Virus genome (UHGV): UHGV-0097092 | DNA: 44,628 bases | Source: a virus | Direction: 5' to 3' (one strand) | Shown here: one piece after another, positions 405-43,656 of the stretch | How positions within the stretch are numbered: the first letter of the stretch is position 1 | Layout of the letters: each line of letters begins with the position of its first letter | Made by a program: the position numbers and the translations under genes | Notes under the pieces: generated by a model | What the model saw: only the letters and a program-made list of their open reading frames with translations | What the model was told of the DNA's origin: nothing | The model's database searches: none

Positions 405-794
405 TTAAATCACAGGTCTATAATCAAACTCCCCACTTCGGGCATCATTAATGACATGAGTGATCACACCAAACACAGCATTACTGCCCGTGCATCCATC
501 GTCATCTACTGGTAACGCCTCTTTCTTCCCGGTGCTTAAATCCTCCAGGTGCTGGCGCGGATACTTCCTGTATCTCTTTATGCGATATTCACCCTCCATA
601 GCGCATATAAGCAGTGAACCATCAACCGGAGTAAGTGAGGAATCAACCACCAGCAAAGCACCTTGCAATATTCCCTCACGGTGATGGCTGTCTGCCGCCC
701 GCATGAAGTAGGTCGCGGAAGGATGTCTGATTAGTTGCTGATCAAGAGAAATGCGGCTCTCTGCATAATCCGCCGCAGGAGAAGGGAAGCCCAT
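405..794 (-). CDS. humD: UmuD'-like S24 peptidase lacking the N-terminal tail (P1 HumD-like)
   Basis: 129 aa starting M-GFPSPAADY, which matches UmuD just after its self-cleavage site; Ser and Lys of the catalytic dyad context retained; LexA box 19 bp upstream. Confidence 0.7.
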   Translation of the reverse strand: MGFPSPAADYAESRISLDQQLIRHPSATYFMRAADSHHREGILQGALLVVDSSLTPVDGSLLICAMEGEYRIKRYRKYPRQHLEDLSTGKKEALPVDDDGCTGSNAVFGVITHVINDARSGEFDYRPVI

Positions 795-812
795 AGCGTT
801 TTACCTCAATGA

Positions 813-832
813 TACTGTTTATTCATACAGTA
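813..832. promoter_or_regulatory. LexA (SOS) box TACTGTTTATTCATACAGTA
   Basis: CTGT-N8-ACAG palindrome, close to consensus, immediately upstream of the humD-like start. Confidence 0.6.
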
Positions 833-917
833 TACATTGAAAAGGAATAGTTTGTGAAAGCGGGGGTTGTAGGCGCGCCACGCTGGGGGCTAATCACATT
901 TCTCCCCCATCTTGCCG

Positions 918-1169
918 TTATTTTTTTGGTGCATCCTCGTTCTGATACACCGGATCGCTCCCTTTTGGCAACTGGAGGCTTAACTGCCGGTAGTGCCGTA
1001 GCCGTTCCATGAAATAGGCGCGCAGATTCTCTGGTTGCTCGCGGGCTACCTGTTCAGCTATGACAGGTATGTTCAATCGCTCTTTGTACGCCACACCGCT
1101 GGCAGCCAGATCAACGTTAACCTTATCCCGTTCTTCCTGACTTTTAGCTGCAATATTCCAGTCGCTCAT
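918..1169 (-). CDS. hot: DNA polymerase III theta-subunit homologue (HolE-like; P1 Hot-like)
   Basis: 83 aa; segment [43 protein letters not shown] closely parallels recalled E. coli HolE. Confidence 0.65.
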
Positions 1170-1171
1170 AT

Positions 1172-1444
1172 TTAAGGCTCACATTTCCAGATGGTATTCT
1201 GAACACCAGAACCGGGCGCTAGATGAGGGTTAGCGTTCGCGCTATGCTGATATACTGCTTTAGACTTCCCATATTGCTGACAGGCTTTATCTGCGGTTTT
1301 TTGCAGGCTATCCAGGCCATACCAACCATCTGACTGTATGCTTACCTTTTCACCGTCGTTGTATTGCACCATTGCACACCCAGATATAGCCAGTATCGCG
1401 CCGACAATAACGCTTTTCCATAAAACTCTATGCAACATATACAA
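1172..1444 (-). CDS. small lipoprotein
   Basis: N-terminal signal peptide with lipobox-like LAISGC. Confidence 0.5.
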
Positions 1445-11209: not shown

Positions 11210-11788
11210 ATGCAGAGACAGAGTTATTGGGAGAAACAGAGACAAAAAGCCATGCAAAAACTGGCTGATCCGGAATGGCGGGAAGAGCAAAGGGCAAAAC
11301 GTCTTCAGCAGGCTCAACGCCAGCAGCAACGCGCAAGGGAAAAAGCCGCATCGCCTGAATATCGTCAAAAGAAACTTGAAAAAGTGAGGCAAAGTGAACA
11401 GCGCAGAAGAGAGAGGGCGGCGTCAGCCCTCCCCAAAAAAACGCGCCCGTCACGCGGATTAAAAGGGAGATCACTCACAGCAGAAGAGCGCCGGATACAG
11501 GACGCTATAGGCAAACTCCCCTGTATTGCCTGCCATCTTCACGGGAAGCATAGCCCTGTCGTATCTCTCCACCACATATTTGGCAGAACGGCTAAAGATG
11601 CCCATAAATACGTTCTCCCTTTGTGTAAATGGCACCACCAGCACGCAGCGCCAGCAGAGATCCGCGAACAATATCCCTGGTTGGTTCCTGTTCATGCTGA
11701 TGGAAAAATAGGCGGGAAAGCAGATTTTATACGGCACAATGCCGAAGAGATGACGCTCTATCAGACGGTGCAAGAAATGGTGAATTAA
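11210..11788 (+). CDS. ref: Ref-like HNH-type recombination enhancement protein
   Basis: basic Gln/Arg-rich N-terminal region plus C-terminal Cys/His core (LPCIACHLHG...LPLCKWHH), matching the P1 Ref architecture. Confidence 0.55.
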   Translation: MQRQSYWEKQRQKAMQKLADPEWREEQRAKRLQQAQRQQQRAREKAASPEYRQKKLEKVRQSEQRRRERAASALPKKTRPSRGLKGRSLTAEERRIQDAIGKLPCIACHLHGKHSPVVSLHHIFGRTAKDAHKYVLPLCKWHHQHAAPAEIREQYPWLVPVHADGKIGGKADFIRHNAEEMTLYQTVQEMVN

Positions 11789-16184: not shown

Positions 16185-16544
16185 TCATACACCAACCAGG
16201 CTTTCAAGAGGAATGCCAAACTGGGAATGTAAACGACGAATCATAGGTAACGTTAAATTTCGTGTCCCATTTAGCACTTCGTAAACACGATTTGACTTAC
16301 CAATCGCCGGTTCCAGATCCTTCACGGTCAGCCCTTGCTGTTCCATACGGAATTTAATGGCTTCAATAGGTGATGGTGGCTCAATTGGGTAATGCTTTTT
16401 CTCGTACTCTTCAATGAGCAGGCACATTACTTCAAAGAAATCGCCTTCCGGTGTGTTCATTTCCGGTTCGTTATCGAACATCGGTTCGACCGCACGCAGT
16501 GCGGCCTCATAATCTTGTTCTGTACGGATAGGTTTAATGTTCAT
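16185..16544 (-). CDS. higA: HigA-family antitoxin (XRE-type HTH)
   Basis: C-terminal HTH IGKSNRVYEVLNGTRNLTLPMIRRLHSQFGIP; sits directly downstream of the HigB-like toxin gene. Confidence 0.65.
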   Translation of the reverse strand: MNIKPIRTEQDYEAALRAVEPMFDNEPEMNTPEGDFFEVMCLLIEEYEKKHYPIEPPSPIEAIKFRMEQQGLTVKDLEPAIGKSNRVYEVLNGTRNLTLPMIRRLHSQFGIPLESLVGV

Positions 16545-16547
16545 GAT

Positions 16548-16850
16548 TTACTCCAGTTCTATTGTATCAGCTTCAATGGCATCGTATTCCTTATGTGTTC
16601 CAATAAACTTAACGAACATCCATCCTCGCTGATAAGCAATTGCGACAATTAACCTGTAATCATTTCCCTTAATATTGAACACCACGCGCCTGTTTTTAAG
16701 GATGCTGGCTGTCCGGTACTGTTCTTTGATCTCAGCCGGATTTTTCCAGTCAGCCTTTGTTGCTTCATCAACCCATGCCTTTAATGGCTGTTCTGCATCG
16801 GGATTCTTCGCCCAGAAATCCCTTAGTGTTTTTACCGAAATTATTTTCAT
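16548..16850 (-). CDS. higB: HigB-family (RelE/ParE-fold) toxin
   Basis: start MKIISVKTL; VFNIKGNDYRLIVAIAY...FVKFIGTHKEYD pattern typical of HigB. Confidence 0.65.
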   Translation of the reverse strand: MKIISVKTLRDFWAKNPDAEQPLKAWVDEATKADWKNPAEIKEQYRTASILKNRRVVFNIKGNDYRLIVAIAYQRGWMFVKFIGTHKEYDAIEADTIELE

Positions 16851-20244: not shown

Positions 20245-21150
20245 ATGAGATCAGTCGCTTTCAAAAACATCTTCATCTATCGTCTTTCACGTGAAGTTAA
20301 CTGGAGTGCCGCAGAAGTATCCGATGCTCTTAGCAAATTCGTGTTTACTCCTTGCGGTTCTCAGGACACAGCTAAAGTCGGTTGGACACCTGTTCTTGGT
20401 GACAACCTCACCCATGAATACCAGGGTTTTCTGCTAATACAGCATAAGCGAGAAGAAAAAATTCTCCCCTCGCAGGTGCTCAAGGAAGAGTTGCAGAAAA
20501 AAGTCCTGAAACTCGAAGAAGAGCAAGCCCGCAAGCTGAAGAAAACGGAAAGAGACAGTCTTAAAGATGAAGTCCTGCATTCACTTTTGCCTCGCGCGTT
20601 CACGAGAAAATCACTCGCCAAAATCCTGATCGACCGCAGCAACCATCTGGTATTCGTTGAGGCAAGCAGCGCCAAAAAGGCAGAGGACCAGCTGGCTTTA
20701 TTGCGAAAGTCGCTCGGCAGCCTGCCTGTCATTCCATTCACACCACGCGAACCGCTGGAAATTACAATGACCGAGTGGTTTAAAAGCGGCTTCCCTGCCG
20801 GATTTACAGCAGGTGAAGACGCCACATTAAAGGGTCTGCTCGATAATGGTGGTGCCGTTCGCTGCAACAAAGTTGATCTACAGTCCGACGAGATTATGTC
20901 TCACATTGAGGCGGGGAAAGTAGCTACGACCGTTGCAATTAACTGGATGGACCGTGCGTCGTTCAGAGTCAACGATGATATGAGTATCAAAGCCCTGACA
21001 TTCTGTGATGATCTCTATGACCAGAACGACGATATCGACCGGGAGGATGTAGCACAACGATTTGATGCTGATTTCGTGCTCTTTACGGGTGAATTATCTG
21101 CACTGTTTAACGCGCTGGTGGAGGCCATTGGCGGTGAAGCAGAACGATAA
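20245..21150 (+). CDS. rdgC: recombination-associated protein RdgC
   Basis: full-length similarity to recalled E. coli RdgC ([68 protein letters not shown]). Confidence 0.85.
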
Positions 21151-21193: not shown

Positions 21194-21814
21194 ATGGTTG
21201 CCCCCTGGCTGGAATACGGTGTCGATGCCGCTATCGTCGATCCACAGCACTTATCGACCAGTGACGAGCGGATGCAATCAGGTGCCGTTCTGACGCGTAT
21301 TAGTGCGATCATCGATAGCGATGAAGTATACGCTTTTCTCCGTAAGAATTTGCAGCGCATCGTGTTTCTGGCCGGGTTCCCACCGTGTACTGACCTGGCT
21401 GTTTCCGGCGCGCGCTGGTTTTCGGACAAGGCTAATAAAGATCCGGTTTTCCAGTTCAAAGCAATGCAGGTTGTCTGGCAGTGTTATGACATTGCAAAGA
21501 TGATCGGTTGTCCGTACATGATTGAAAATCCGGTCAGCAAAATATCGACATTCTGGCGTAAGCCAGATCACATCTTTCACCCTTACTTCTTCACTGCATA
21601 TTGTCAGGAAGATAACTACACCAAAAAAACATGCCTCTGGAGCGGCCAGGGCTTTGTCATGCCTGATGCCCTAATGGACGAATCATTAGGCAAGCCAGAT
21701 AACAGAATCCATGCCGCGCCACCAGGGCCTGACAGGGCTAATTTCCGAAGTGCTACTCCACATGGATTCGCAAAGGCAGTTTTCGAAGCGAATAAGGGGG
21801 TGCTCTATGAGTAA
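21194..21814 (+). CDS. short C5-cytosine methyltransferase-like protein lacking an obvious target-recognition domain
   Basis: about 206 aa with motif I-like LCDFTGAM, motif IV-like GFPPCTDLAVSGA, motif VI-like MIENPV; start uncertain (ATG 21194 or upstream GTG/TTG). Confidence 0.45.
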   Translation: MVAPWLEYGVDAAIVDPQHLSTSDERMQSGAVLTRISAIIDSDEVYAFLRKNLQRIVFLAGFPPCTDLAVSGARWFSDKANKDPVFQFKAMQVVWQCYDIAKMIGCPYMIENPVSKISTFWRKPDHIFHPYFFTAYCQEDNYTKKTCLWSGQGFVMPDALMDESLGKPDNRIHAAPPGPDRANFRSATPHGFAKAVFEANKGVLYE

Positions 21815-22712
21815 ATCTATAGCAAGCATAGCCATAGAAAAACAGGATACGATGGCTGAAATTAGCTATATGCGCACCATTCGGACTCCGGATGAATATG
21901 AGCGTCCGATATTCAAATGGGTAGGTGGTAAATTCTCAGAATTGCCTACAGTGCTTGAGCATCTACCACACGGTAAGCGGTTAATAGAACCATTCGTTGG
22001 TGGCGGTTCCGTATTTACGAATGCAGGATTTCGCCACAACCTGCTTAATGATATTAACGGTGACCTGATTAACTTCTATCAGACATTGCAGCGAGAAGGA
22101 CATTCGCTCGTCACGCTGTCATATAGTTTTTTCAAAAATTACAACAACGCTGACGCTTACCTCGAAGTGCGTGAGGCATTTAACAGAGGAAAATATGACC
22201 AGCTACATCATGCTGCCGCATTTTTGTACCTTAATCGTCACTGTTTTAATGGCGTAACGCGGTACAACCAAAATGGCGAGTTCAACGTGGGGTATGGCAA
22301 ATACAAAGCGCCCTACTTCCCACATGCAGAGATGGAGGCATTTTTGGCTGATGACGTACTCAAAAACACTTCCTTTGTATCAGGAGACTTTGCTAGCGTC
22401 ATCGAGGCGGCTGGTGAAGACGATGTGATTTTTTGTGATCCGCCGTATGAACCGCTTCCGGATACAGAGGGATTTACCAGCTATTCAGGAAATAGCTTCC
22501 GTTTCGATGAACAAAAACGGCTTGTATCACTGTTGGTGGATGCCCACCAGCGCGGCGCTAAGGTAGTGATAACAAATAGTGGTGCTCCAAACATCCGTGA
22601 GCTATATGAAGGAAACGGGTTTAAAGTACATCATATGGCAGCCAGACGGTCGGTTTCCTGCAAGGCGTCAACACGTGTAGTTGCTAACGATATAATTGCA
22701 ATAATGAAGTAA
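21807..22712 (+). CDS. dam: Dam-family DNA N6-adenine methyltransferase
   Basis: FKWVGGK, EPFVGGGSVF, FLYLNRHCFNG and DPPY motifs; 8-bp overlap with upstream gene. Confidence 0.8.
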   Translation: MSKSIASIAIEKQDTMAEISYMRTIRTPDEYERPIFKWVGGKFSELPTVLEHLPHGKRLIEPFVGGGSVFTNAGFRHNLLNDINGDLINFYQTLQREGHSLVTLSYSFFKNYNNADAYLEVREAFNRGKYDQLHHAAAFLYLNRHCFNGVTRYNQNGEFNVGYGKYKAPYFPHAEMEAFLADDVLKNTSFVSGDFASVIEAAGEDDVIFCDPPYEPLPDTEGFTSYSGNSFRFDEQKRLVSLLVDAHQRGAKVVITNSGAPNIRELYEGNGFKVHHMAARRSVSCKASTRVVANDIIAIMK

Positions 22713-22760: not shown

Positions 22761-24422
22761 TTAACCTAACTTCGCCCAGGTATCACGCAGCCCAACGGTG
22801 CGGTTAAATACCGGTTTTTCCGCCGTAGAATGGCGGCTGTCGAGGCAGAAATAACCTTCACGCTCAAACTGGAATGCTTTACCCGCTACCGCTTCTTTCA
22901 GCGACGGTTCAGCAAAGCCTTGTTTGATCACCAGCGATTCCGGGTTAATCACCGACAGGAAATCATCCGCAGCACCAGGGTTCGGCACGCTGAACAGACG
23001 GTCGTACAGACGGATTTCAACCGGCAGCGCATGTGCCGCGCTCACCCAGTGAATAACACCTTTGACTTTACGACCATCTGCCGGATCTTTGCTTAAGGTG
23101 TCGGCGTCATAAGTACAGAAGATGGTGGTGATATTGCCTTCGGCATCTTTCTCCACGCGTTCAGCCTTAATGACGTAAGCATTACGCAGACGCACTTCTT
23201 TACCCAGCACCAGACGTTTGTACTGCTTGTTAGCTTCTTCTCGGAAATCGGCGCGGTCGATCCAAATCTCACCGCTAAACGGCACCTGACGGCTACCCAT
23301 TTCCGGTTTGTTTGGATGGTTCGGCATGGTGACCATTTCGCCTTCGCCCTGGTAGTTTTCGATAACCAGTTTCACCGGATCGATAACCGCCATTGCGCGC
23401 GGCGCATTTTCGTTGAGATCTTCACGGATGCAGGATTCCAGCGACGCCATCTCAATGGTGTTGTCCTGCTTGGTCACGCCGATGCGTTTGCAGAACTCAC
23501 GAATAGAAGCCGCAGTGTAACCACGACGACGCAGACCGGAAATGGTCGGCATACGCGGGTCATCCCAGCCTTCAACGTGCTTGTCGGTCACCAGCAGGTT
23601 CAGCTTACGCTTGGACATCACAGTGTATTCCAGATTCAGGCGCGAGAATTCGTACTGGCGCGGGTGAACAGGAATGGTGATGTTGTCCAGCACCCAGTCG
23701 TACAGGCGACGGTTGTCCTGGAACTCAAGCGTACACAGAGAGTGCGTAATACCTTCCAGCGCATCGCTGATGCAGTGGGTGAAGTCGTACATCGGGTAGA
23801 TGCACCACTTGTTGCCAGTCTGGTGGTGTTCAGCAAATTTAATACGGTACAGCACCGGATCGCGCATCACGATAAACGGTGAAGCCATGTCGATTTTCGC
23901 ACGCAGGCAGGCTTTACCTTCTTCAAAACCACCGGCACGCATTTTTTCGAACAGCGCCAGGTTCTCTTCAACGCTGCGGTCGCGGTACGGGCTGTTTTTA
24001 CCCGGTTGCGTCAGGGTGCCGCGGTATTCGCGGATCTGTTCCGGCGTCAGTTCATCAACGTACGCCAGGCCTTTATTGATCAGTTCGATCGCATAGGCGT
24101 GGAGCTGATCAAAATAATCGGAGGAGTAACGGACGTTACCAGACCAGTGAAAACCTAACCACTCTACGTCGTTTTTGATCGACTCAACATACTCGATATC
24201 TTCTTTTACCGGGTTAGTGTCGTCGAAACGCAGGTTGCACTGGCCTTTATAGTCCTGGGCGATCCCGAAGTTCAGGCAGATAGATTTCGCATGGCCAATA
24301 TGCAGATAGCCATTTGGTTCCGGCGGGAAACGGGTATGTACTGTGGTGTGCTTACCACTGGCCAGATCTTCATCGATGATCTGACGAATGAAGTTAGTCG
24401 GGCGGGCTTCTGCCTCACTCAT
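22761..24422 (-). CDS. glnS: glutaminyl-tRNA synthetase, near-identical to E. coli GlnRS as recalled
   Basis: 553 aa; N-terminus [52 protein letters not shown] and VMSKR class I motifs. Confidence 0.95.
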
Positions 24423-26251: not shown

Positions 26252-27191
26252 TTAACCGATTGCTTTCAGGCCATGAACAAGAGCAAGTTGCGGGTCATCC
26301 GCCACGAAGAAACGGTCATCACGAATATTAACTTGCTCGCGAATTGCATCTGCCACCAGCGGTGCGCCACCACCGATCACCATGACATGCGTATATCCTT
26401 TAAAGAACGCGGGTACGCAGACGGTCAATGCTTGCGGCAATGGCCTTTTTCACATCACCAACCGCTGATGGGTCATTGATATTGTCGTTCAGATAATCTT
26501 CATCGTGGCGGTTAATAATGAGCTGATCGACATTGTAATTTGACGTTTCGGTATTGGCTCTGGCAAGTGCTTGCCTTACTTCCCTGGTAACCAGAGAGAC
26601 GCCAAGATTCGAATCGCCAAAAACACGGGAAACTGCCGTCATTTGCCCGGCGACCATTGAAACATCAAGGGTAGTTCCACCCAAATCGACGATAAGAACA
26701 GAATGGGCAGGGTTCAGATTGTCGCACAGGCCAATTCCTGCCGGAATAGACTCCGGGCGTACCGTAACTTTCTTAATCGTGAACACATTGCCTTTATTCA
26801 GCGTGACGGGGCGCATAAGGCTGGCTTTCTTGCGCTCGATGTTATCGAGATTGTATTGCGCGTCGTCGTCGTAAAACTCCGCCAGAGGCAGCGTGACCAC
26901 AATTTCTACTTCCTGCGGCTCAATGCCACTTGTCAGCAGGGCATGGTGAACAGCCAGGACGTTAAGCGGGCTGTATTGCCATTCCACGTTATTCGTCGGC
27001 AGAACATCTGGCGAGATCAAATCATACGAATACTTTTCGTCGTCAATGACATAGTTAAACGGCTTGCCCGCACCAAATGTTGCTGACCATCCGCGCTTAA
27101 AGCTGTTAGGGCTGATGTGAGTGCGAGTTTCCCCGTCGTGCTCCCACAGCATTTTGATATTGGTTGAACCATCATCGATAAAAATGCGCAT
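26252..27191 (-). pseudogene. parM: ParM/StbA-like actin-type partition ATPase, interrupted by a frameshift near 26400-26420
   Basis: N-terminal 263 aa (MRIFIDDGSTNIK...DRLRTRVL) stops at 26400; the conserved C-terminus (GYTHVMVIGGGAPLVADAIREQ...) continues in another frame (26252..26440). Confidence 0.6.
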
Positions 27192-27216
27192 CTTCTTGCT
27201 CCACTTCTGAGACACA

Positions 27217-37440: not shown

Positions 37441-37736
37441 TTGAGGGCATTTTTTACATCATTAATCCATCTGTAATGAAGGCATTCTTTACACATTTCA
37501 ATAATATCAATCAGTTAACACAGTGAATGATAATAAAAAGCGCAATAAGAATGCACGATACGCACGATATTGGTTGAGGGCGATTTTTACATAATCCTTA
37601 TATATCAATTCGTTATATAAAAACACAACTTGCTAATAACAAGATACATGCAATTAAGATGTAAAAATTGCCCTCAATTGCCGATCGTTAAGGGCAAATT
37701 CTACACCTTGAGAGGGGTGTAAAAATTGCCCTTAAG
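37441..37736. repeat. downstream iteron cluster (inc-like), mixed orientation
   Basis: TTGAGGGCATTTTTTACATC (37441), TTGAGGGCGATTTTTACAT (37574), inverted copies GATGTAAAAATTGCCCTCAA (37668) and GGTGTAAAAATTGCCCTTAAG (37716). Confidence 0.55.
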
Positions 37737-38487
37737 ACTGCTGATAGGTAAATTTTATCCTGGTAACTTTGCCGCCTTCCGTCACCTCTGAGAAGACTAT
37801 TTTCATTTTTGTATTTTTTTCAATCTCTGCTACAGCCTTCGTTAAAAAACTTCTCTTAAATTCGGCATACCGCTGATAGCTTTTTGGTAACCCATAACGC
37901 TCCCGCATCCATTCGACGCCAAGTATGGCAAAGCCGCTTCCATCATCCTTCCTGTACTGGCATAAGGACTCATAAAGCCGCATAGAATAAGGATTTGTAA
38001 GGCGAGATACTTCGGTAAAATTCAGCCTTGTGAATCTCTTATCAAGCAGAGTAAAAAACGGCATGAGATATGGATTAAGATGAATAATGTAAGTCCCGCG
38101 CCGTGGTGAATAGGCATCCTTAATCATCCAAGGATAAGACTCATAACTGTCTTCTGATTCGGTCGATTCATCAGGGTTATATATCGTAACTTTCTTCTCG
38201 CTAAGACCTGAAATGGCCTTACGAATATCCTTGCTGGCTTCAGCAGAGGGCAAATTATACATCTCTGCATATTCGTTGACCGTCAACTCACAGGCACCTG
38301 AACCAAGAACGCCATCCTTAGAAGCATAGCGAAGTCTTCCCACCACAATAAACAACAGTCGCTTTTGGTCGCGAGTCAGGTGATAAGCAGCCTCCGTGAT
38401 CTCATTGGCTTGTGCCAAACTACGACTAATAGGTGTCGCTGACTCAATCAGGCTGACGGCTTTTGCTGTTAATTCCGCTCTGTTCAT
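37732..38487 (-). CDS. repA: iteron-binding replication initiator (Rep_3 family, RepE/RepA-like)
   Basis: 251 aa from ATG 38487; NPYSMRLYESLCQYRKDDGSG and SAEASKDIR segments closely resemble recalled F RepE; flanked by iterons. Confidence 0.8.
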   Translation of the reverse strand: MNRAELTAKAVSLIESATPISRSLAQANEITEAAYHLTRDQKRLLFIVVGRLRYASKDGVLGSGACELTVNEYAEMYNLPSAEASKDIRKAISGLSEKKVTIYNPDESTESEDSYESYPWMIKDAYSPRRGTYIIHLNPYLMPFFTLLDKRFTRLNFTEVSRLTNPYSMRLYESLCQYRKDDGSGFAILGVEWMRERYGLPKSYQRYAEFKRSFLTKAVAEIEKNTKMKIVFSEVTEGGKVTRIKFTYQQS

Positions 38488-38512
38488 AACCCTGTGTGAT
38501 CCTTCAAATGGT

Positions 38513-38629
38513 GAGGGCAATTTTTACATCACTTTGAGGGCAATTACTACACCTTTTGAGGGCAAATCTTACACCTTCTGAGGGCAAATCTTACACCGAT
38601 CGTATCTAATTGAGGGCAAATCTTACACC
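38513..38629. repeat. five direct 19-20 bp iterons (TGAGGGCAAATCTTACACC-type) at about 22-bp periodicity upstream of repA
   Basis: copies at 38513, 38535, 38557, 38580 and 38610. Confidence 0.7.
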
Positions 38630-42700: not shown

Positions 42701-43656
42701 TATCCAGCTTAACCGGTAAATCTTTTGGATTTAAAAAAGCTTCTCAAGTGGCTGATATCGCAACAGCCATACAACAAAAACGCACTGTTAATCACGATAC
42801 AGAAATCATTGATCTACTTCCGGGAGATCAAGTATCCCCTTCTACTCCGAAAACTCCACAGCAGGAGCAGGCTCTGGCAATCAACCAGGCTATGGCGGGC
42901 TTTTCGTCTGCAGCGCCAGCACCGAAAACCCCACAGCAGGAGCAGGCTCTGGCAATCAACCAGGCTATGGCGGGAGCTGCGCCAGTAGTTACCTCTGGAA
43001 AACGAACTATCACGGCACCAAGTGATGTGCAGATTTATGACAACGGCTACAAGGTGGTTACAGGTGAGGATAAGAGCTTCTTTGGTTCGCTATTTGATTC
43101 CACGGTGTCAGGGCTTAAACAGACAGGAACCGCAGTAATTCCTGCCGTTGGCGATAACCTTTCACGACTTGTTGGGGGGATTGATAGTACAGGGATATTG
43201 AACGATCTTGTAATGCAGTCTACTGGGCAGAATAGTGCGATTGCGCGAGCTATTAGCCCATTAACAAGAAATGTTGGAGACTGGTTGAATGGGGGGATTC
43301 AACAAACCGCTAATAGCATTAGGGGAATAGCAACTGGTGCCAATAACGCCATATTTGGCTCTGCTTCAGCTGTGCAAGAACCTTTTCTTGCTATGCCGCC
43401 ACAACTCCCTACTGTAACCGATCTCGCACGAAGCGGAATAAGACAACCATTAACTACTGACACTATAAATAACGATCCTGCTATGTTGAAGGCGCTGGAT
43501 AACATCTGCTCTATCCTGAACGATCTGCTGAATGTGAACAAGAACAATACAAAAGGCGATCCGGATAATGTTGTCAAAACATCGCAGCCGCAGCCGCGAC
43601 CACGTGCGAGCACAACTATTAATGACCAGTCGCTGGATGCTCTGCTTGAGGATTAA
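39712..43656 (+). CDS. putative tape-measure / structural injection protein (P1 Sit-like); start uncertain (TTG 39844 has the better RBS)
   Basis: 1314 aa; Lys/Ala-rich low-complexity regions, internal tandem repeat, Gly-rich segments; sits next to baseplate genes. Confidence 0.45.
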   Translation: MDISPLATLNNYRNGEHSICQKPWKKNTKLKPGNVDRAGKREVILKENKDRIAIIDAIQGASTNELKALAEIKNAILSDRGSITQLGENQGKVSQRLSRRRIASEPYVSGDAKNTQANPYIKRLPMKKGRTQVNNGEERLIVATNTSERVHFASSRQSAQKLKGSVPVAANSAPLEPQSPQSQKGPLRDSNGRFVSQKNNEDIARKKEWQNARKADAKLQEGFLRKLGSIIGVDGNQSSSEESLTDAAGVGAGGPLWMAARGMYDITKEITGKAESLKEWVEKGKGEALSSKATSPAITYPAVVNTQKATSATAFNNAVETKSAQAVEEQTKILQTNDNKIIDGLENVSDEVVKLRKSVSSGNKFGLSDLWRNRASRRNKINIGEQAGKNKRNKPKRKGRNLGKKALSVGEKAAAGTAAAGAGAGAAKTVKTKVSKAKDISTTSDASKGIAKETKNTAKAVKPAGVVAEEATIKTGETVAKKKTESVALKSAAKIGVKSAASTAARAIPIIGSLAMAGYDAIDGYTDTDAQKAAFGLSDDDAVSEQQKTAYATANVLDMGGLVSGATNLIGKGISALGFERAGEKLQNFDTGDIARGVNGAVDITKSVFGNLKDTFLSTDENTKQVKKAVEDGTKKTVDAIHSLGEQLQGGRNGEDGVGEHGYTSPTEFSAPANNTIAADLNIGGSNAKNRNYRNNNLGNLVFANQEGATLESPNAKGEQRFARFNTPEEGIRALANQVSSYYNGTSAAAGYQKLQTVSSIISKWAPPNENNTNQYIDNVSKYLGVSPNEKIDVSKPEVMTQLVRAIATKEGGNPAVNNEFIKNALGAFNTNTGRWEGQFSDETLARINKIQKENGGQLIARDSQYSVGRKVKYANGKSPAQPVLNAVPTATQQPIEVAQHAQAVKKPQKTGNQPQPINPENADVNTGSPSSLLERLITINESGISGASNLFGGAATSLAGTSLDLVKDFALATSFGSISSLSEKAKGMDQALTEKISSLTGKSFGFKKASQVADIATAIQQKRTVNHDTEIIDLLPGDQVSPSTPKTPQQEQALAINQAMAGFSSAAPAPKTPQQEQALAINQAMAGAAPVVTSGKRTITAPSDVQIYDNGYKVVTGEDKSFFGSLFDSTVSGLKQTGTAVIPAVGDNLSRLVGGIDSTGILNDLVMQSTGQNSAIARAISPLTRNVGDWLNGGIQQTANSIRGIATGANNAIFGSASAVQEPFLAMPPQLPTVTDLARSGIRQPLTTDTINNDPAMLKALDNICSILNDLLNVNKNNTKGDPDNVVKTSQPQPRPRASTTINDQSLDALLED
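42847..42974. repeat. two tandem copies of a 75-bp unit (25 aa, PKTPQQEQALAINQAMAG...) inside the Sit-like gene
   Basis: near-identical units starting 42847 and 42922. Confidence 0.6.

Follow-up and report, generated by a model that had tools for sequence, protein, structure and literature searches.

A hot–humD locus with its LexA operator in a very probable P1-like phage-plasmid without lxr

Introduction

The stretch of viral DNA analysed here (44.6 kb, called the window below) contains, at positions 405–1169, a gene for a UmuD'-like protein, a LexA box in front of it, and a gene for a homologue of the theta subunit of DNA polymerase III. This locus raises the question of whether it derives from a P1-type element, whether the UmuD'-like protein could be made directly in its processed form under LexA control, and whether the neighbouring gene shares that control. 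A preliminary description, made from the DNA letters, had read the segment as an SOS-controlled pair of genes of the P1 type. In all likelihood, the region belonged to a P1-like phage-plasmid and represented its hot–humD locus with the LexA operator, in the form that lacks lxr.

Results and Discussion

Layout, origin and occurrence of the locus

According to the list of open reading frames of the 44.6-kb window, hot and humD were both on the minus strand, a detail absent from the preliminary description. In the 5' to 3' direction of that strand, the order was hot (1169–918), a spacer of 123 nt (917–795), humD (794–405), and a terminator (396–367). The terminator hairpin at 367–396, 3' of humD, had an RNA folding energy of −24.7 kcal/mol (z = −4.38) and a 13-bp stem followed by a U-tract, UUUUUGUU. 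It was common to humD and to a convergent gene ending at 359.

The first 3 kb of the window were 100% identical to pTB423 (NZ_CP034790.1), an E. coli plasmid, and the identity over the whole window was about 98%. pTB423 is a 91.8-kb non-mobilizable P1-like phage-plasmid. Furthermore, 703 (roughly 13%) of the 5,426 complete genomes of E. coli contained the 765-bp locus, nearly always on a plasmid, and it was contiguous at a coverage of at least 80% in 323 of those 703 genomes. In recent RefSeq records, the two products already carry the names "HumD family translesion DNA polymerase" and "DNA polymerase III subunit theta".

In P1, RCS47 and D6, phd-doc comes after humD, and it was absent from positions 1–404 of the window. 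Its place was taken by the convergent gene ending at 359, which encodes a hypothetical protein of 364 aa and stands in a block of dut/DUF2829 genes. A scan of the whole window against Rfam returned no family at threshold, and a scan of the window for tRNA and tmRNA genes found none.

Identity and truncated start of humD

The gene at 405–794 (minus strand, ATG at 794–792) encodes an orphan UmuD'-like protein of 129 aa. The protein matched the NCBIfam HumD equivalog NF051876.1 over its full length (residues 1–129 on profile positions 1–129 of 129), scoring 209.4 bits where the cut-off is 120, and it also matched Pfam Peptidase_S24. In addition, it was 95% identical to the HumD of P1, which bears out, together with the match of its neighbour described below, the resemblance to the P1 proteins that was expected from the preliminary description. 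In the alignment with the UmuD' structure 1umu_A (E = 5.8e-23), Gly2 of HumD fell on chain residue 1, and in the alignment of HumD residues 2–119 with residues 25–139 of E. coli UmuD (43% identity), Gly2 was opposite Gly25. The gene had been proposed to begin exactly at the position of processed UmuD, and the two alignments agreed with this to the residue. An in-frame stop codon (TAA), 9 nt ahead of the ATG, ruled out a longer form of humD. Moreover, the 129-aa ORF with the identical start was kept in all 79 of the close relatives compared. A Shine-Dalgarno-like GAGG was read from the sequence at 804–807 (minus strand), 9 nt before the ATG; it was mostly kept in the close relatives, a few of which had AAGG or GGGG.

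The equivalents of the UmuD residues Ser60 and Lys97 were not conserved across the HumD family, where Ser was replaced by T, Q or Y, and Lys by M or R. HumD proteins of the P1 type, including that of the window, retained both of them as Ser36 and Lys73, whereas several distant HumD proteins had lost these equivalents. The loss of the catalytic residues in the family fits a lineage in which self-cleavage became irrelevant. The reading of HumD as a pre-processed UmuD', for which no cleavage is needed, was correct.

The HumD family also possessed a conserved C-terminal tail of its own, NDARSGEFDDCPV(I/M), which was absent from UmuD'. The tail of the HumD in the window (405–425) read EFDYRPVI, compared with the family consensus EFDDCPVI, and this variant was shared by two of the 79 close relatives. 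The variant consisted of three substitutions within 6 nt and adjoined the end of the homology with P1.

No Y-family polymerase and no umuC was annotated anywhere in the near-identical pTB423, and the downstream neighbour of humD was the convergent hypothetical gene with the terminator, not umuC. By analogy with the P1 protein, to which it was 95% identical, the HumD of the window would be able to replace UmuD', that is, to form a dimer, to bind UmuC and the RecA filament, and to restore SOS mutagenesis. The P1 protein is reportedly poorly expressed in vivo, and good complementation is said to be obtained from a high-copy plasmid only. If so, the natural contribution of HumD to mutagenesis may be small. 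It is also conceivable that HumD serves as a modulator or decoy, which would titrate host UmuC, UmuD or RecA filaments and thereby alter the SOS checkpoint or recombination in favour of the phage. The missing umuC annotation, the presence of the RecA-directed proteins Ref and RdgC on the same element, and the C-terminal tail specific to HumD would suit such a role. However, the core matched UmuD' from end to end with 43% identity, and McLenigan et al. (1999) call HumD, in their title, a functional homologue of UmuD' that facilitates SOS mutagenesis, which makes the decoy role quite unlikely and leaves that of a UmuD' replacement as the preferred one.

The LexA box and the predicted promoter of humD

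The palindrome at 813–832, TACTGTTTATTCATACAGTA (TACTGTATGAATAAACAGTA when read on the minus strand), was an exact match to TACTGT-N8-ACAGTA, as the preliminary description had stated for a canonical LexA operator (SOS box). All of its 12 outer positions matched, and 17 of its 20 positions agreed with the consensus TACTG(TA)5CAGTA. It was the sole exact TACTGT-N8-ACAGTA and also the sole CTGT-N8-ACAG in the 44.6-kb window, none of 100 dinucleotide shuffles gave any exact site, and a relaxed search for further LexA boxes in the window produced no credible candidate. The box had been placed 19 bp upstream of the gene; this value holds as an edge-to-edge offset, but the number of nucleotides actually lying between the box and the ATG was 18 (795–812).

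A perfect box 18–19 nt from the humD ATG was present in 75 of 80 close relatives from IMG/VR, and the changes were confined to its central 8 bases. Furthermore, all six distant HumD homologues had a LexA box 14–44 nt upstream, in flanks that could not be aligned. The geometry was the same as that of E. coli umuDC, in which the box is 19 nt before the ATG; in both systems, the box stands 18–19 nt ahead of the start codon, and it overlaps the promoter of umuDC and the predicted one of humD. The records of P1 and phiKO2 annotate an equivalent site for LexA binding, and the entry for P1 reads "LexA binding site in the regulatory region of lxr and humD". In a survey of P1-like phage-plasmids, humD is termed a LexA-regulated SOS gene (PMC9603915). 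Taken together, the comparative evidence strongly suggests that the box is functional.

A sigma-70 promoter of humD was predicted at 829–858 (minus strand) by a consensus scan, with TTCACA (858–853), an 18-nt spacer and TATACT (834–829), and 10 of the 12 hexamer positions matched. The predicted −10 hexamer reached over the first four bases of the box, and bound LexA would thus occlude RNA polymerase. Both hexamers occurred in nearly all relatives without lxr, and TATACT was also found in most of those with lxr. The same scanner missed the umuDC promoter of E. coli, which is known, and little can therefore be concluded from places where it reported nothing. The −10-like hexamer that overlaps the box was TGTACT in the P1 reference (L001 2857–3100) and TATACT in nearly all relatives, lxr-containing ones included, and the humD promoter of the P1 reference may therefore be atypically weak.

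In the P1 record, the predicted PhumD is within lxr, about 480 nt upstream of the position predicted here. This distant promoter, the assignment of the box to both lxr and humD in the P1 annotation, and the absence of a terminator between hot and humD would be expected if the box were a leftover of lxr regulation and humD were expressed mainly by read-through from hot, with LexA as no more than a roadblock. However, a box 14–44 nt from humD was also present in phages without lxr nearby (N15, phiKO2, HK639 and others), the geometry was that of the umuDC operator, and the 10/12 promoter match overlapped the box. A leftover box is thus very unlikely, and direct control of humD by LexA, in line with the published work on P1, is the better reading of the operator.

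Identity and transcription of hot

The gene at 918–1169 (minus strand) encodes a theta homologue of 83 aa, and the proposal of an 83-aa HolE-like gene just upstream of humD, at a distance of 123 nt, proved right. Residues 4–69 matched positions 2–67 of 70 in Pfam PF06440 (DNA_pol3_theta) with E = 5.8e-34 and 116.1 bits (gathering score 34.6), and NCBIfam NF008207 was matched with 104.6 bits against a cut-off of 97. The whole protein aligned with P1 HOT (PDB 1se7/2ido; E = 3.8e-47, 1–83 on 1–83), of which 77 of 83 residues were identical and 6 differed. Residues 5–68 also aligned with residues 4–67 of E. coli theta (1du2) with E = 2.1e-19. Hot and E. coli HolE (theta) belong to the same family, PF06440, but Hot is borne by a phage or plasmid and, like HOT, has a longer C-terminal tail than theta. 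According to published work, Hot binds and stabilises epsilon, the proofreading subunit of the host Pol III, on which P1 relies (PMC2528190). With 77 of 83 residues identical to the HOT protein, which was solved both alone and together with epsilon186 (2ido), the Hot of the window would be expected to bind epsilon as well.

The preliminary description had further implied that the host replicase is modulated under DNA damage through hot. This was not upheld. Since hot is upstream of the LexA box, it is not controlled by it, and nothing found here puts hot under SOS control. The result was in agreement with the title of a published study on P1, according to which hot is expressed in both the lysogenic and the lytic stages. 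A hairpin (GGGGGAG...CCCCC) was found 3' of hot at 884–909 (minus strand), with z = −1.69 in the RNA fold of 795–930 of that strand and without a U-tract. The terminator scan of the spacer and the RNA fold gave no convincing terminator between hot and humD, and read-through could therefore add humD expression that is independent of LexA or limited by a roadblock.

For the −22 motif of the P1 late promoter LPhot, AAGTTACTT, the search with at most one mismatch gave 9 matches compared with 9.3 expected, none of them near hot. A lipoprotein-like ORF was observed at 1172–1438 (minus strand), with a signal peptide, the lipobox AISGC and a match to phrog_7757; it is unannotated in pTB423. This ORF stands where P1 has upfM/N/O, and a terminator-like hairpin (1444–1473) was directly upstream of it. 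The start of hot follows the stop of this ORF by 2 nt, and the two are thus probably co-transcribed.

Comparison with P1, relatives and distant homologues

In P1 (NC_005856, P1_gp101-103), the order is hot, lxr (on the opposite strand, 573 nt), the LexA box, humD and phd-doc. The HumD of the window had the same 129-aa length and start as that of P1, and the LexA box was at the same position; the P1 box, TACTGTATAAATGAACAGTA, had 2 central substitutions relative to that of the window. The window differed from P1 in that no lxr was present between hot and the box, which left the 123-nt spacer, and no phd-doc followed downstream. Furthermore, upstream of hot there was the small lipoprotein-like ORF instead of upfM/N/O, without the LPhot motif. 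RCS47 and 813R1 showed the same direct layout of hot, 123 nt and humD as the window. However, RCS47 keeps phd-doc beside humD, and the window and pTB423 do not.

The layouts were mixed among the 80 close IMG/VR relatives: about 32 (roughly 40%) had hot and humD without lxr, about 28 (about 35%) had lxr and humD but lacked a hot gene within 2.5 kb, and about 9 (about 10%) had the P1 order. In the survey of P1-like phage-plasmids (PMC9603915), the stretch from pmgT through hot-lxr-humD is given as one of eight highly variable regions. The mixed layouts and the variable region indicate that hot and humD are separable modules.

HumD differs from E. coli UmuD in lacking the 24-residue N-terminal arm and the Cys24-Gly25 site, in its extra C-terminal tail, and in that no umuC follows the gene. 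The distant homologues, namely N15 gp26, phiKO2 gp23 and the proteins from HK639, Enterobacter MII_003, Aeromonas pAEv1818 and Hafnia yong1, had protein identities of 44–67% and 23 invariant columns. Five of the six began with M/V-GFPSPA, and the Aeromonas protein began with MGMPKFASPA, with an insertion of three residues before the conserved SPAADY. The HumD proteins of N15, phiKO2, HK639 and others resembled the P1 type in their length of about 125–129 aa, the tail SGEFDDCPV, the absence of umuC and the box just upstream. They differed in their surroundings, since their genes adjoined those for tail fibres, partition or an integrase and had no hot in the vicinity.

Because the six distant homologues keep the box and the truncated start without hot, the pairing of hot and humD is lineage-specific. 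The arrangement had been called a P1 hallmark, and this is only loosely true: the genes were indeed of the P1 type, but P1 itself has lxr between them, only about 10% of the relatives had the P1 order, and the distant HumD proteins occurred without hot.

Finally, the idea that the humD ORF is a 5'-truncated, decaying remnant of umuD beside a chance palindrome, for which only the shorter length relative to umuD can be cited, is so improbable as to be negligible, being contradicted by the conservation of the start in 79/79 close relatives and in distant phages, by the curated equivalog family, and by the lack of the box in all 100 shuffles.

Proposed mechanism

In the undamaged lysogen, host LexA would sit on the palindrome at 813–832, where it would cover the end of the predicted −10 hexamer and the start of humD transcription, and humD would be off. 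After DNA damage, RecA would be activated, LexA would cleave itself, and humD would be transcribed. HumD would be made directly in the UmuD' form, without the N-terminal arm or the Cys-Gly cleavage site, and would thereby skip the slow RecA-mediated step from UmuD to UmuD'. The protein would be expected to form a dimer and to join the host UmuC in a Pol V-like translesion polymerase; host UmuC is the expected partner, as is suggested by published work on P1, because no umuC is annotated in the near-identical pTB423. Hot would act as the product of a separate accessory gene, transcribed from upstream and outside the control of the LexA box, and may replace or supplement theta on the epsilon subunit of the host Pol III that is used for phage replication. 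Of these elements, the gene identities, the truncation point, the box with its quality, uniqueness and conservation in distant relatives, and the lack of umuC were observed here, and LexA control, the partnership with UmuC and the binding of epsilon follow published work on P1. In P1, hot, lxr and humD are all reported to be non-essential for plaque formation (PMC10695390).

A more far-reaching proposal combines two points: that hot and humD form one transcription unit in the lxr-less P1-like phage-plasmids, with bound LexA between them as a roadblock released by damage, and that the tail SGEFDDCPV (here SGEFDYRPV) is an undescribed partner-binding motif with a role beyond that of UmuD'. Taken jointly, the two are unlikely. 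If the first were true, the constitutive transcript, which is "theta-only", would become one of "theta plus UmuD'" after damage.

Other genes carried by the element

A full-length glutaminyl-tRNA synthetase gene of the glnS type was found at 22761–24422 (minus strand). The product of 553 aa matched Pfam tRNA-synt_1c (E = 1.5e-129) and both anticodon-binding domains. The gene is annotated in pTB423 too, and it is an unusual cargo for a P1-type element. In addition, genes for the RecA-dependent nuclease Ref (11210–11788), RdgC (20245–21150) and a Dam-like D12 adenine methyltransferase (21711–22712) were present on the plus strand. With HumD and Hot, these three modulators of host DNA metabolism add up to a considerable group directed at RecA, SOS and replication.

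A HigB/HigA-like pair at about 16185–16850, taken from the annotation of pTB423, may serve as an addiction module. A gene for a Rep3/RepB-type initiator was found at 37732–38520 (minus strand), with 3.9 copies of a 22-bp iteron (38512–38597) at its 5' end, and ParM was found at 26400–27215. The initiator, the iterons and ParM indicate that the replicon and the partition system differ from the RepA/ParAB of P1. Moreover, a segment of 128 bp at 42847–42974, inside an ORF for a transglycosylase-like protein of 1314 aa, matched three overlapping positions of pTB423 that were 75 bp apart. This suggests in-frame repeats of roughly 75 bp, the number of which varies between the element in the window and pTB423.

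Significance

For P1, descriptions of the genes and the operator and of what they do go back more than 20 years, the protein families are curated, and RefSeq already contains the exact sequence. As a discovery, the locus is for these reasons of little weight. It is useful as a marker of a P1-like phage-plasmid, and it illustrates that temperate phages carry a LexA-gated, pre-activated accessory subunit of Pol V. In the E. coli genomes with this locus, roughly 13% of those sequenced, such a subunit could increase the mutagenesis that follows DNA damage.
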